Source: a virus (Duplodnaviria > Heunggongvirae > Uroviricota > Caudoviricetes). From it: a DNA stretch of 26,612 nucleotides. Made by a program: the position numbers and the translations under genes. Below the pieces are notes generated by a model. That model saw only the letters and a program-made list of their open reading frames with translations, was not told the DNA's origin and searched no databases. Positions within the stretch are counted from its first letter, which is position 1. Each line of letters begins with the position of its first letter. The DNA is taken from IMG/VR virus record IMGVR_UViG_2541047923_000008, one strand, 5' to 3'. Below, piece by piece: positions 12,699 to 22,566 of this stretch.

Positions 12699-13726
<1,028 letters not shown>

Positions 13727-16557: not shown

Positions 16558-16632
<75 letters not shown>

Positions 16633-16635
16633 ATA

Positions 16636-16711
<76 letters not shown>

Positions 16712-16713
16712 AC

Positions 16714-16790
16714 TGGACCGCCACCGGGGACTCGAACCTCGCACACTCAACTTAAAGGGTTGACGCTCTTTCCTGATGAGCTAGTGGCGG
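16714..16790 (-). tRNA. tRNA-like gene, possibly tRNA-Lys (UUU) or a degenerate tRNA pseudogene
   Basis: Reverse complement CCGCCACTAGCTCATCAGGAAAGAGCGTCAACCCTTTAAGTTGAGTGTGCGAGGTTCGAGTCCCCGGTGGCGGTCCA; good acceptor, D and anticodon stems, but C at position 33 and one T-stem mismatch. Confidence 0.4.
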
Positions 16791-16791
16791 C

Positions 16792-16867
16792 TGGTGGCCC
16801 TTGCTGGATTTGAACCAGCGACCTGGCGATTATGAGTCGCTCGCTCTCACCACTGAGCTAAAGGGCC
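16792..16867 (-). tRNA. tRNA with anticodon CAU (Ile2/lysidine-type or Met), ileZ-like as in lambdoid Stx phages
   Basis: Reverse complement GGCCCTTTAGCTCAGTGGTGAGAGCGAGCGACTCATAATCGCCAGGTCGCTGGTTCAAATCCAGCAAGGGCCACCA; resembles E. coli ileX-type tRNA as recalled; anticodon loop CUCAUAA. Confidence 0.7.
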
Positions 16868-18113: not shown

Positions 18114-19241
18114 TCATGCTTTCCACTTCAGGACACCCGAATTTCTCGCGTGCATTAAAAAACGAATCAGCAACAACAGCTGGCTGCCGTGTTTTTCTTC
18201 AAAATCTTTTACCCCGGCGTGCAGTTCGTTATGACATTTACGGCACAGCGGAATAACAAACAAATCATCAGCCTTTGTTCCCATCCCTCCCAGTCCATGA
18301 CCAATGATGTGATGCGGATCATCTGCCTGATTACCGCACGTCATGCATTTCTGCGTTTTTACCCAACGCGTGTATACAGGCATCTCTTCCCGTTGTGGTT
18401 TCTGGCGCTGGAGATACTGAGCCGGTGACTCCGGATCAACGGCAATGCTGACCACCGTCTTTTCCTGTGGCGGGTTTTGCTGGTGGGCATGAGGCAACGG
18501 CGCAAGATTTTTTGTGCGCTGCTTCAGTATGCTGGTGGCGGTCTGCTCTCCCAGTACGATGTCGCTTTCGCGGTACAAGGAGCGGATTTTTTCCGCACGT
18601 AACCCCAGAGAACGACGTAATACTGCCTCCGGAAGCGCGTCCGCCACCTGATTGCAGACCGCCCACCAGGATAATTCAGCCAGCGACAATTCCCGCTCCT
18701 GCGTGCCATTCATTGCATGGCGTATGACGTCAATCATCCATGCTGACAGGTTTTGATGAGCAAGTTGCCCGAGTGATTCGGATGTCTGGTCACGCAACTG
18801 GTTGTCGCAGTGCCAGCACAACACCATCGCGCCGGTACCGTAACGATGTATGACGATTTCACTGTGATGATAGTCACCATGAGGCCACTGGCAGGATTTG
18901 ACATGACGCAACAGCCAGTCAGACAGTGCCCCAGCGCCGCCAGCAGCACGAATCACCCGCTCATCGCTGAAAAATGGCAGTAATGATTTATCCTCCGCCA
19001 GCGGCTGGCGAACGGCAGGGACGACTCCGGACGGCAGACCGCGCATGCTTTTCGGTTCAGGCTCCACCAGCACTCGAGGGTTATGAAATACTTGCATGGA
19101 TTCACGGCCCGGCCTAAGGACCACCAGCCCGAGTTCCGGTACCAGAACAGGTCGAAGTAATATCCGCACGTTACCTCCAGATCCGTTGCTGGTATGTGCG
19201 GGATGGGCGCGGTGGGCGTTCGGAATAAGGGAGCCTGACAT
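18114..19241 (-). CDS. DUF968-family prophage protein (YdfU-like) with C-terminal HNH-like Cys/His motif; start codon uncertain
   Basis: C-terminal HHIIGHGLGGMGTKADDLFVIPLCRKCHNELH motif; position next to rusA and Q as in Qin-like prophages; alternative starts near 19097 or 19046. Confidence 0.65.
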   Translation of the reverse strand: MSGSLIPNAHRAHPAHTSNGSGGNVRILLRPVLVPELGLVVLRPGRESMQVFHNPRVLVEPEPKSMRGLPSGVVPAVRQPLAEDKSLLPFFSDERVIRAAGGAGALSDWLLRHVKSCQWPHGDYHHSEIVIHRYGTGAMVLCWHCDNQLRDQTSESLGQLAHQNLSAWMIDVIRHAMNGTQERELSLAELSWWAVCNQVADALPEAVLRRSLGLRAEKIRSLYRESDIVLGEQTATSILKQRTKNLAPLPHAHQQNPPQEKTVVSIAVDPESPAQYLQRQKPQREEMPVYTRWVKTQKCMTCGNQADDPHHIIGHGLGGMGTKADDLFVIPLCRKCHNELHAGVKDFEEKHGSQLLLLIRFLMHARNSGVLKWKA

Positions 19242-19449
19242 AGATTATCCAGTGACGATAATCGAGGCTGAGGGCTTTCTTAATCTCGTATCCGCGTCTG
19301 CGATAGTTATGAATTAGCCATTCGGCCTGTTCTTCAGTACATGGGTCATGCTGGAACCAGTCAGATTTGAAAGTGCGGGAACGTCGCCCGTGCCTGCTGG
19401 CAAAGACGGCAGAATCATCAGAATTGTGTAATTTGGTATCGTGCGCCAT
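19171..19449 (-). CDS. Hypothetical small prophage protein (Rem-position ORF)
   Basis: ORF 19171..19530; start placed at the internal ATG at 19449 because a terminator hairpin lies at 19519-19546. Confidence 0.4.
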   Translation of the reverse strand: MAHDTKLHNSDDSAVFASRHGRRSRTFKSDWFQHDPCTEEQAEWLIHNYRRRGYEIKKALSLDYRHWIIYVRLPYSERPPRPSRTYQQRIWR

Positions 19450-19518
19450 CGGTTGTCTCTGCTGGCGCAGCAGGTGCCAGTTGTTCAGGCTGGCGTGCGA
19501 ATTGTAAACCAGAATGCC

Positions 19519-19546
19519 AGGAAAAAACAAAACCCGCCGAAGCGGG
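19519..19546 (-). terminator. Rho-independent terminator on the minus strand (CCCGC-TTCG-GCGGG plus T-tract)
   Basis: Plus strand AAAACCCGCCGAAGCGGG; on the minus strand the hairpin is followed by TTTTGTTTTTTCC. Confidence 0.55.
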
Positions 19547-19745
19547 TATGCTAAAACAAACTGAAAGTAATATACCAGACTTGTAAAGGAACGATAGAAT
19601 AATTATTGGATTAAACCCTGACTCAATCCAGATTTCATAGGCAACAACTACGGACTAATCATCACAGTCATGTTTGATAGGCTTAGTCCACATTGGGTGA
19701 GGGTTTACGGCGTTTTCACTAATAATTTATCGTCCAAGCTATACA

Positions 19746-20138
19746 CTACTGCCCTGTTTTAACGAAGTTTTTAAAGGAAACAACTGCCTGATAGGGGTTT
19801 GGTTGACAGCCAAACATATTATCGCAAAAAGGCTTGATGAAAATTCTTGAGGATCCATCTTCATTTGGCATTTTACTCACTTGATAAGCGAGGAATGGAC
19901 TATTTGGAGAGGGATTATAAGTGGAAATTAGCGTGTCTGTCGCCGTTTGAATTTTCCATGAGGAATTATTAGCCAACCAGAATTGCGCTCGTTTCCAATA
20001 AAAGTCACATTGCTTTTCATCATTACATGTTAGTGGCTTCATTGCTTCTGCTTTCAACGCTGGATCGACCTTTGCTGCACACCCTCCCAACATTACTGTT
20101 GCAATCATTACACCTGCGACTAAAACAAGTTTCTTCAT
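19746..20138 (-). CDS. Cysteine-rich lipoprotein of unknown function (moron)
   Basis: 130-aa ORF with a signal peptide and lipobox (MKKLVLVAGVMIATVMLGGC) and four further Cys; AT-rich, flanked by terminators. Confidence 0.7.
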   Translation of the reverse strand: MKKLVLVAGVMIATVMLGGCAAKVDPALKAEAMKPLTCNDEKQCDFYWKRAQFWLANNSSWKIQTATDTLISTYNPSPNSPFLAYQVSKMPNEDGSSRIFIKPFCDNMFGCQPNPYQAVVSFKNFVKTGQ

Positions 20139-20281
20139 CTCCCTGCCCCATCAATAAAAGTTCGGTTCTCTAATAACTAGAGTTAATCAACGGAAAAAAC
20201 GCCGAAGCGGGTTAAGTGCGGGTGCGTTGAGGATGCCTGACACATCAGAGGTGGCGAGGGATTTCTCCCCCGCCAGGTCTC

Positions 20282-20437
20282 TTACTCCTCAGGTTCGTAA
20301 GCTGTGAAGACAGCGACCTCCGTCTGGCCGGTTCGGATTCGTACCTCGCAGAGGTCTTTCCTCGTTACCAGTGCCGTCACAATGACGGTTAAACAGATGA
20401 CGATCAGGGCGATTAACATCGCCTTTTGCTGCTTCAT
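20282..20437 (-). CDS. hok: Hok-family membrane toxin (type I toxin-antitoxin)
   Basis: 51-aa product MKQQKAMLIALIVICLTVIVTALVTRKDLCEVRIRTGQTEVAVFTAYEPEE matches my memory of HokD/RelF; the ORF track shows a 19-codon in-frame upstream extension. Confidence 0.85.
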   Translation of the reverse strand: MKQQKAMLIALIVICLTVIVTALVTRKDLCEVRIRTGQTEVAVFTAYEPEE

Positions 20438-20652
20438 AGCCTGCTTCTCCTTGCCTTTCGGCACGTAAGAGGCTAACCTAGATTTGCCGTTCATAGATTG
20501 AGCCTCAGATTAATGTTAAGCGTCTTGCAGGACGCGTAATGTTAACTGGGGCTTTTCTCTATCTGCCTTTGGTGTTCATGCCTGAGGCAGATAGCCTCAA
20601 GCACCCGCAGCAATTCTACTTAACTCACGTCACCTCGCCAATATAAAATCAA

Positions 20653-20943
20653 TCAGAAAGGCGATCCATAAGAACAATAGCAAGACAATAAATCGCCATT
20701 ACAGCCGTAATAGCCAGCGCACATTTGAGAACCAGCACCACAACCTCCTGTATTGGACGTACACCAGTCCTGATAAATATGAGGATGTCTCGTCAGTGAT
20801 TCAATACAACTATTGGGTATAGTTTCTGTGATTTTGTTCTGTAGAAATGGAACATAATAACCTGTCACCACCAGCACTTCTTTAAATACGCCAAGTCCGA
20901 CGCAAGCTAACCTTCTAGCCCGCTTTGAGCGAGAAGCAGACAT
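20653..20943 (-). CDS. Hypothetical Cys/Gly-rich small protein; coding status doubtful
   Basis: 96-aa ORF with a basic, hydrophobic N-terminus and a Cys/Gly/Tyr-rich C-terminus (CTSNTGGCGAGSQMCAGYYGCNGDLLSCYCSYGSPF); no Shine-Dalgarno. Confidence 0.25.
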   Translation of the reverse strand: MSASRSKRARRLACVGLGVFKEVLVVTGYYVPFLQNKITETIPNSCIESLTRHPHIYQDWCTSNTGGCGAGSQMCAGYYGCNGDLLSCYCSYGSPF

Positions 20944-21231: not shown

Positions 21232-22566
21232 ATGTTTAGCTTAATCATGGCCGGAGAACCGGACGTTTTTGACCGCTGGCCGTGTATGGACCCTGGGCTT
21301 AAAGAAGGCGAGGAAAGATTCTCGATGTCCCGCATGCTGGAAGGCACCCCAAGCGATATTTACAGTAAATTAACACCAATAAGACCCGATACCTTAAGAG
21401 AACTCGCCAAGCTACCAGTATTGTTCATGACCGAAACTTATACAAAAGATGATGAATATGATACAAACAAGTACATCAGGATCAGACTTGGGGAAATAAG
21501 AAACTTACGTAAAGATGGTGGCGATATTTTATTTTCTTTCAAGATTAATCATAATTTTGGAGAAATAACGAATCCCCAAACGACATTATATAAAGAAACC
21601 CTAGGGCTAGGATCTTTCGGGTTAAGTCGTACACATTGGGCAGTAAAAAATAAGGATTTAAATATTGTTCTGGAATCACTTGGTTTAAACAAACAAAATA
21701 GCCAACTGAAAGGTACAATCAAATTAAAAAAACAAACATACCCAGTAGTCGAGAATATTATAGATTATCTTAGTTTCATAAAGAAAAACTTTCGTGATGG
21801 TCTCATTACCTTTTATCGTGGACACTCTAAAAGCTCATATGAGCTTGTCCCCTCTCTTTACAGAAAAAATCAAAACGGGACGTACAGGCATCTTGCTTCA
21901 GAATCTGATTTAGTACGTGAAATACTCAGCGCAAGACCAAATGAATTTAAGGAGGATAAATTTACGATTGATAAACTTGTCCGCATGCAGCATTATGGCT
22001 TGCCTACAAGACTCTTAGACATTACATCTAACCCACTGATAGCATTATATTTTGCTTGCTGTTCGAACCCCGATGAAAACGGACAGGTGATTTCGTTTTC
22101 AACAAATAGAAAGAAAATTAAATATTTCGACTCAGATACAGTGAGCTGTATAGCAAACTTATCACTTTTATCTTACGAAGAGTTGGAAAAATTGTCCTCC
22201 TCTGATTCCAGAAAAGGTAATATGGAGTTATCTGAACTCACGGATAAACTTGCAGACCTTATACAGAATGAAAAATCATATTTCAGAAACAGAATAATTC
22301 CTGATGACTTAAGGAAAGTTGTTTTCCTTAAGGCTAAAATAAATAATGAACGCATACAATCTCAGGCAGGAGCTTTTCTTCTGTTCGGACTTGATCCCAT
22401 TTTACCGGAAACAGATGCTGAGTTTCCTCTTAACAGAGTGGAGATAGCGAACAAAAATAAAATTCTGGAAGAGCTGGCGCAGCTTAATATATCCGAAAGC
22501 ACTGTATATCCCAGCATGGAGAAAACGGCAGCAGAAATTGCAACAAAGTTTTTATCGGTATCATAA
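21232..22566 (+). CDS. FRG-domain protein with an uncharacterised N-terminal domain of about 190 aa; candidate prophage accessory or defence gene
   Basis: 444-aa ORF with AGGAG Shine-Dalgarno 6 nt upstream; contains the FRG-family motifs as I recall them: FYRG (aa 194-197), QHYGLPTRLLD (aa 253-263), NERIQSQAGAF (aa 371-381); AT-rich, opposite strand to the surrounding phage operon. Confidence 0.8.
   Translation: MFSLIMAGEPDVFDRWPCMDPGLKEGEERFSMSRMLEGTPSDIYSKLTPIRPDTLRELAKLPVLFMTETYTKDDEYDTNKYIRIRLGEIRNLRKDGGDILFSFKINHNFGEITNPQTTLYKETLGLGSFGLSRTHWAVKNKDLNIVLESLGLNKQNSQLKGTIKLKKQTYPVVENIIDYLSFIKKNFRDGLITFYRGHSKSSYELVPSLYRKNQNGTYRHLASESDLVREILSARPNEFKEDKFTIDKLVRMQHYGLPTRLLDITSNPLIALYFACCSNPDENGQVISFSTNRKKIKYFDSDTVSCIANLSLLSYEELEKLSSSDSRKGNMELSELTDKLADLIQNEKSYFRNRIIPDDLRKVVFLKAKINNERIQSQAGAFLLFGLDPILPETDAEFPLNRVEIANKNKILEELAQLNISESTVYPSMEKTAAEIATKFLSVS

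Follow-up and report, generated by a model that had tools for sequence, protein, structure and literature searches.

A predicted outer-membrane lipoprotein of lambdoid prophages, carried as a promoterless cassette in the hokD terminator

Background

What is the short gene that lies directly behind the hokD toxin gene in a lambdoid prophage of Escherichia coli, how did it come to be there, and what could transcribe it? The window in which we address these questions is a stretch of 26,612 nucleotides of viral DNA (Caudoviricetes; IMG/VR record IMGVR_UViG_2541047923_000008), whose top genome matches are 96% identical over ~74% of its length and in which the prophage genes follow the order replication, nin region, Q, lysis and head, nearly all of them on the minus strand. 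A first-pass annotation of the sequence had read the gene as a cysteine-rich lipoprotein moron flanked by terminators, situated in an AT-rich island between the ORF in the rem position and hok, and resembling neither Bor nor Cor. Here we examine the gene, its protein family, the boundaries of the element that carries it and the placement of its relatives, and weigh the functions that these suggest.

The gene and its setting

The genes that define the locus are:

20282-20437, minus strand: hokD toxin coding sequence, 51 aa, directly upstream of the lipoprotein gene and on the same strand
19746-20138, minus strand: lipoprotein coding sequence, 130 aa, ATG start, TAG stop, PHROG 16082
19171-19449, minus strand: ORF in the rem position, 92 aa, downstream of the lipoprotein gene and followed by DUF968/ydfU, rusA and Q

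The full translation of the lipoprotein gene is MKKLVLVAGVMIATVMLGGCAAKVDPALKAEAMKPLTCNDEKQCDFYWKRAQFWLANNSSWKIQTATDTLISTYNPSPNSPFLAYQVSKMPNEDGSSRIFIKPFCDNMFGCQPNPYQAVVSFKNFVKTGQ. Its presence, its place between hokD and the rem-position ORF and its AT-richness had all been noted at first pass and hold: GC content is 0.37-0.42 across 19550-20150 as against 0.51-0.57 in 18350-19550 and ~0.51 over hok, and the RefSeq genome of E. coli 042 has the same order as the window, namely hokD, WP_000737636.1, a hypothetical protein, DUF968, RusA and Q. The identical protein is present in RefSeq as the "hypothetical protein" WP_000737636.1 and in UniRef as the "Prophage protein" A0A0B1FDW6, and is encoded on at least 1,000 contigs; a literature search for the accession WP_000737636 returned no paper mentioning it.

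The surroundings of the locus offer several further observations. The DUF968/ydfU ORF (18114-19241, minus strand) has 375 aa from its first ATG and overlaps the 3' end of the rem-position ORF (listed as 19171-19530, minus strand); its RefSeq homologues have ~349 aa, and the true start is therefore probably further downstream. Four tRNA genes (Gly-TCC, Thr-TGT, Lys-TTT and Met-CAT) occupy 16558-16867 on the minus strand, between the Q antiterminator and the lysis genes. Two genes from hokD, and antisense to the phage early operon, a stretch with a GC content of 0.31-0.40 holds a gene for an FRG-domain protein of 444 aa (21232-22566, plus strand) with a match (E 1e-98) to PDC-S15, a candidate defence family of PADLOC. 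This gene, hokD and the lipoprotein gene together constitute a small island of accessory or defence genes in the nin region.

Lipoprotein signal, cysteines and predicted fold

The N-terminal part of the protein, as read from the sequence, is encoded as follows:

20079-20138, minus strand: signal peptide (residues 1-19) and codon of the lipobox Cys20 (20079-20081)

The signal peptide, MKKLVLVAGVMIATVMLGGC, combines a KK-bearing n-region, a hydrophobic core and the lipobox L17-G18-G19-C20, with Ala at +2, and the N-terminus MKK-LVLVAGVMIATVM-LGGC agrees with the lipoprotein signal pattern [LVI][ASTVIG][GAS]C. This lipobox, already pointed out in the first-pass annotation, is conserved family-wide, being present in at least 133 of 163 family representatives, while the remainder are mostly fragments or have near-lipoboxes. 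Among these 133 sequences the +2 residue is Ala in 107 and Asp in none; Lol-dependent sorting to the outer membrane in Enterobacteriaceae calls for a residue other than Asp at this position, as found here. The protein is thus most likely, as predicted from its signal, a lipid-anchored secreted protein that is sorted to the outer membrane. Besides C20 it has exactly the four cysteines that had been counted earlier (C38, C44, C105 and C111), which form two C-x5-C motifs.

Structure prediction, named as a check in the first-pass annotation, delivered a confident fold and, at Foldseek E values of 0.01 at best, no homologue. The AlphaFold2 model computed with the family alignment (mean pLDDT 84, above 90 over the mature domain) runs from a short helix and a beta strand through a long helix (41-58) and four strands to a C-terminal helix (115-128), so that the mature domain of 111 aa is predicted to be a helix-grip-type alpha/beta module. 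In this model both cysteine pairs are found where a strand gives way to a helix or a loop, and this suggests two stabilising disulfides made in the periplasm and a compact domain that is probably stapled by its C-x5-C pairs.

Foldseek searches of the PDB and BFVD recovered nothing better than E 0.01, the best solved neighbours being Flpp3 of Francisella (DUF3568) and the N-terminal domain of BamC, both of them outer-membrane lipoproteins. The similarity to these two amounts to 11-15% identity, Foldseek E values of 0.01-0.04 and TM-scores of ~0.4-0.5, and both differ from the prophage protein in having no C-x5-C pairs. As eukaryotic KA1 domains score equally with Flpp3 and BamC-N, the resemblance is one of shared topology, from which homology cannot be demonstrated; a profile-level sequence match to DUF3568/Flpp3 was looked for and is absent. 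RcsF, which is of similar size and also has four cysteines, was considered and is not among the fold matches.

A large family, and purifying selection on the gene

Residues 1-130 of the protein align with positions 1-130 of the 130-position profile of PHROG 16082 (E 2.6e-84), and the protein is distantly related to PHROG 4186 (E 2.2e-8); neither PHROG carries an annotated function. A profile search of 1.84 billion cluster representatives (50%-identity clusters) recovered 1,141 related clusters at E values up to 1e-3 and 532 at up to 1e-10, with proteins mostly of 125-137 aa. In an alignment of 44 diverse members C20, C38, C44 and C105 are invariant, and P35, W48, W54, S59, T73, I99 and C111 nearly so. 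Curated resources do not describe this family: Pfam gave no significant family up to E 1 (its sole match being C4, E 0.072), the NCBIfam search returned nothing significant, PADLOC-DB v2 yielded no defence family at E up to 0.1, and the sequence profile search of the PDB produced chance matches only (an apolipoprotein E signal peptide and collagen). When ten distant members were run against Pfam, only appended PDZ or DUF4124 domains were detected and the core domain was never matched. A scan of genome contigs yielded a single locus, in Variovorax.

The gene is under purifying selection. Among E. coli alleles dN/dS is 0.10-0.25, and in comparisons with orthologues at 76-85% amino-acid identity the synonymous sites are saturated while non-synonymous divergence is 0.12-0.21. 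One copy (L057), otherwise 99% identical, has a nonsense codon at Gln52, which implies that the gene is occasionally lost by mutation.

A cassette in the hokD terminator

In K-12 Qin and many other prophages hokD is followed by an intact terminator, ACCCGCTTCGGCGGGT, and then a T-run; the homology of the window to these genomes breaks off inside the hokD hairpin. Alignment with strain GN05064 (L104) delimits the inserted segment, whose parts are:

19548-20212, strand not applicable: cassette of 665 bp, an exact insertion relative to empty hokD sites
20194-20212, minus strand: upstream direct-repeat copy, AAAAAACGCCGAAGCGGGT on the plus strand, corresponding to the hokD terminator minus the 3' half of the stem
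20139-20159, minus strand: ribosome-binding region, GGGGCAGGGAG before the ATG
19548-19745, minus strand: 3' untranslated region of 198 nt, with an imperfect 16-nt inverted repeat (19612-19627 and 19692-19707)
19522-19547, minus strand: downstream repeat copy, which is the original hokD terminator, intact, ACCCGC-UUCG-GCGGGU followed by UUUGUUUUUU

A 13-nt duplication, CGCCGAAGCGGGT, marks the two edges of the cassette (19535-19547 and 20200-20212). A synthetic cassette-deleted junction, used as a BLAST query for empty sites, is contiguous in many genomes, where one uninterrupted piece of up to 98.5% identity matches it; at least 80% of its length is covered in 2,646 genomes, and since these include ~250 occupied sites, which match in two joined pieces, ~2,400 genomes have an empty site. 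Of 5,426 complete E. coli genomes 255 have the cassette itself, exclusively on chromosomes and essentially always at the hokD site, and it is also present in two sequenced phages.

A moron is recognised by its presence in some genomes and absence from others with a precise empty site, and by a base composition unlike that of its flanks, both of which are found here. The earlier designation "lipoprotein moron" therefore stands as regards the presence/absence cassette, the clean empty site, the deviant GC content and the conserved lipobox; the gene is not a textbook moron with promoter and terminator to itself: no promoter is detectable, the intact terminator downstream is the displaced one of hokD, and the upstream "terminator" is a broken copy of it. 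By the same token "flanked by terminators" is only half true. The downstream copy is strong, with a 6-bp GC stem, a UUCG loop and a U-tract (RNA fold -13.1 kcal/mol, z -3.4), whereas the upstream copy is crippled, folding no better than its shuffles (-5.5 kcal/mol, z -0.12), and was not called at 20194-20212 in the terminator scan.

DNA-level homology sheds light on what was mobile. By blastn the match to the 81%-identical Enterobacter orthologue (L105-107) covers 20159 to 19757 only, that is the ribosome-binding site and coding sequence, and the ribosome-binding region is the sole non-coding sequence that the two have in common, which indicates that the mobile unit is a promoterless ORF. The alignments taken together show that what entered the hokD terminator of this prophage by recombination was a cassette of ORF plus RBS lacking a promoter.

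Within the 3' untranslated region, roughly a dozen further cassettes in E. coli (e.g. L025, L045, L053-55 and L058-62) lack a 69-bp segment (19631-19699) that sits between the arms of the inverted repeat. An Rfam scan of 19300-20700 detected the hok/sok element only and nothing in the cassette or its 198-nt 3' untranslated region; an rsmX match at E 0.95 was dismissed.

Probable transcription by read-through

Upstream of the cassette, the hok locus has an apparently complete 5' regulatory leader with a promoter-like site, a situation that differs from K-12 Qin, where relBE abuts hokD:

20432-20606, minus strand: hok leader/sok-family RNA element (Rfam RF01794 "sok", 111.7 bits against a gathering score of 59)
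20613-20641, minus strand: sigma-70 promoter-like site TTGGCG-17-TAGAAT, just upstream of the hok leader, a consensus match only

The 143-nt spacer between hokD and the lipoprotein gene contains no sigma-70 promoter at 8/12 consensus matches, the best site reaching 7/12 even with a relaxed search included. Given this and the crippled upstream terminator, the likely source of transcription is read-through from hokD or pR, the hok part being suggested by the hairpin energetics only. The site at 20641-20613 is a candidate promoter for a hokD-lipoprotein transcript. In a lysogen the constitutive hok promoter would supply the read-through; in lytic development the gene would be transcribed from pR under N antitermination, as proposed from its location in the nin region upstream of Q. 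Because the usual hok terminator is taken away by the cassette, carriers must produce hok mRNA with another 3' end, and in hok/sok systems this 3' end matters for fold-back regulation. The insertion offers a clean natural case of how expression can be gained by a promoterless cassette, and may at the same time have remodelled the transcript of a type I toxin. We regard the anatomy as a whole, namely a real gene for a lipoprotein, brought in by a cassette and arranged for read-through, as very probably correct.

Genomic context of relatives

The phage-located relatives share one arrangement, in that they have the orientation of the gene preceding them and follow it at 0-136 nt. Five independent lineages (L004; L005-7, found in Hafnia and Citrobacter; L071-74; L078; L079) have a gene for a CI-type repressor in front, with a gap of 0-95 nt, or in L071-74 a 4-nt overlap with the repressor gene, and the pair is divergent from cro-like genes. 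The repressors concerned have an HTH_3 domain, mostly together with Peptidase_S24, or match phrog_4. A position behind the CI repressor is like that of rexAB and is expressed in lysogens. In Yersinia enterocolitica prophages (L111 and L112, 5314-6402) the copy is 57% identical, shares the strand of parD-parE and follows this pair after 136 nt, with sieB and a repressor nearby; this is a second independent placement directly behind a toxin-antitoxin locus.

Orthologues at 70-85% identity are instead found inside tail-tip operons. In Enterobacter and gut contigs the gene lies between the tape measure and gpM genes, in Phytobacter it adjoins a gpM remnant, in two loci (L066, L067) it falls between those for tail-assembly protein I and J, and in two others (L064, L065) it immediately precedes I and J and is accompanied by a second lipoprotein gene. 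The J protein adjacent to the Pantoea-type orthologue was considered as a guide to a receptor, but its C-terminal 250 aa are only ~50% identical to those of HK225 and N15 J, which is too low for such a deduction. Small lipoprotein genes unrelated to the family (phrog_890 "lipoprotein", phrog_914 and others) often adjoin the relatives, as in L064 (6374-6784), L065 (6332-6679), L004 (1456-1944 and 1991-2344) and L076 (4117-5987), which suggests multi-lipoprotein accessory clusters.

Other members are not associated with phages. Burkholderia-like contigs of up to 2.8 Mb code for a longer form with a Pro/Ala-rich tail in a conserved neighbourhood of gshA, an MFS transporter, MarR and AlkA. Several distant members carry C-terminal PDZ domains (P0034, P0103, P0129, P0133, P0148, P0160 and P0267) and one has tandem copies of the core domain (P0117). 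PDZ domains bind the C-termini of proteins, and these fusions hint at periplasmic protein-protein interaction.

Functional considerations

Placement behind cI, parDE and hok or beside receptor-binding tail genes, combined with an outer-membrane-type lipoprotein signal, would fit a role in exclusion; by analogy, the placement pattern is that of lysogenic-conversion and superinfection-exclusion lipoproteins. The first-pass annotation had named superinfection exclusion by masking of receptors and serum resistance as frequent roles of prophage lipoproteins, and the placement of the relatives lends this circumstantial support. The reading that we prefer, put forward tentatively and held at somewhat below even confidence, is that lysogens express from this gene an outer-membrane lipoprotein by which a receptor is masked or superinfecting phages are excluded, as judged from gene position only. 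The mature lipoprotein would bind a component of the outer membrane that serves phages as receptor or entry route, and this binding could exclude superinfecting phages, keep progeny from being wasted on cell debris, or both.

The existence of core-chromosomal members makes a general envelope role a serious rival. On this account, which we nevertheless consider rather unlikely, the protein would, for example, bind small ligands or lipids or associate with proteins of the periplasm or outer membrane, and would have been captured from bacterial chromosomes and contribute to lysogen fitness in ways unrelated to phage. The housekeeping neighbourhood of the members on Mb-scale contigs speaks for it, as do the PDZ-fused and tandem forms, the size and taxonomic breadth of the family and a predicted fold similar to the helix-grip seen in Flpp3, BamC-N and SRPBCC ligand binders. 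Close relatives (57-85% identity), however, are overwhelmingly in prophages and at classic accessory-gene sites, their repeated capture behind repressor, toxin-antitoxin and tail genes suggests a phage-specific advantage, and no ligand or partner can be named.

An improbable alternative is a lysogenic-conversion factor of the Bor/Iss/TraT kind that confers serum or complement resistance or aids host colonisation. A prophage lipoprotein of outer-membrane type in a position compatible with lysogen expression would suit such a role, and carriers include human bloodstream, avian and porcine isolates as well as the enteroaggregative E. coli 042; yet the protein is without similarity to Bor (no significant Pfam family, PHROG matches to the signal peptide only), many of the carriers are environmental and commensal isolates, and relatives occur in soil- and plant-associated bacteria such as Pantoea and Variovorax, for which serum resistance is irrelevant.

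We think it very improbable that the protein acts in the lytic cycle only, in lysis, as a spanin-like protein or in tail assembly. The gene does lie in the pR delayed-early operon and close orthologues are inside late tail operons, but many relatives occupy repressor operons, which are on in lysogens, a secreted protein with a lipid anchor is unlikely to assist in the assembly of tails, which are cytoplasmic, and lysis is provided for by a separate cassette of the prophage (12699-13726). The one hint of an o-spanin, a PHROG match to an Rz-like spanin at E 0.21, is insignificant and confined to the signal-peptide region, and this candidate was rejected. As for a decaying, functionless passenger ORF, to which the nonsense codon in one IMG/VR copy and two truncated database entries (P0006, P0013) might point, its probability is close to nil, for it is already contradicted by the selection analysis, with the dN/dS values given above and 76-85% amino-acid identity kept despite saturated synonymous sites, by four cysteines and the tryptophans that are invariant or nearly so in 44 diverse members, and by the 1,141 homologous clusters.

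Significance

Part of what we describe was already known: the sequence is in databases as a hypothetical protein and in PHROG without a function, and a lipoprotein accessory gene in a prophage is of a familiar kind. What is new is the size and breadth of the family, the predicted fold, the exact boundaries of the cassette in the hokD terminator with loss of the upstream terminator, and the recurrent placement of a promoterless ORF behind cI, a toxin-antitoxin locus or tail genes. The family has no name and no Pfam or NCBIfam model, yet ~5% of the complete genomes of E. coli carry it and over 1,000 clusters across Proteobacteria belong to it.

Joining the preferred exclusion function to these findings yields a more far-reaching picture, which we offer as a speculation and think doubtful in its entirety. 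It would hold that these proteins are a new family of outer-membrane lipoproteins borne by phages, very widespread (more than 1,100 clusters) and lacking a curated model, which block entry via the receptor or envelope machinery with a helix-grip domain that is stapled by disulfides and has no relation to Cor, Llp or Bor; that they spread as promoterless cassettes borrowing the transcription of constitutively active units, namely the cI operon, toxin-antitoxin loci (hokD, parDE) and tail operons; and that in this prophage the loss of a terminator turned hokD into the first cistron of a hokD-lipoprotein transcript. Prophage surface lipoproteins decide which phages infect a lysogen and thus bear on phage therapy, host-range prediction and competition between prophages. 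Should the protein be an exclusion factor, a new structural class would join the short list of Cor, Llp and the mEp Lpp proteins, and a single gene of 390 bp would make a simple target for assay; should it be a generic envelope lipoprotein, the finding would be ordinary.

Comparison with known phage lipoproteins

Lambda Bor and its relative Iss are like the present protein in being prophage-encoded outer-membrane lipoproteins, and Bor is a typical moron expressed in lysogens. Pfam Lambda_Bor was not among the matches, there being no significant Pfam match up to E 1, and no PHROG match to Bor extends beyond the signal peptide. The two also differ in their transcription, as Bor carries its own promoter and none is detected for the lipoprotein gene.

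The classic superinfection-exclusion lipoproteins are Cor, of phi80, N15, HK022 and T1, and Llp of T5, which protects the progeny of that phage from adsorption to debris. They share with our protein their small size, phage origin and SPII-type signal peptide, and are likewise encoded by accessory genes that often lie beside tail or receptor-binding genes. There is no homology between them: the mature domain described here is larger (111 aa), has four cysteines and adopts a different predicted fold. The Cor profile (phrog_1119) matches residues 1-44 only (E 0.0071), that is the signal peptide and linker, with the mature Cor domain unmatched; sequence and fold similarity to T5 Llp was looked for and is absent, Llp not being returned by the fold searches; and tblastn against 50,697 phage records found two E. 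coli phages only, neither of them T5-like or phi80-like. The first-pass annotation had judged by eye that the protein resembles neither Bor nor Cor, and these searches agree with it.

A further parallel in action may be found in temperate coliphages, among lipoproteins that are encoded inside the structural gene cluster and exclude phages according to the receptor used (PMC11893012). Of these the mEpimmI proteins Lpp021 and Lpp010 have a lipobox and were shown to exclude phages using the same receptor, OmpA or LamB (PMC11893012). We set them beside the present protein by description, as at most analogues, no such phage being among the BLAST matches. With the exclusion reading held tentatively as above, we propose that Cor of phi80, N15 and HK022, Llp of T5 and the mEpimmI Lpp proteins are functional analogues, and not homologues, of the lipoprotein carried in the hokD terminator.
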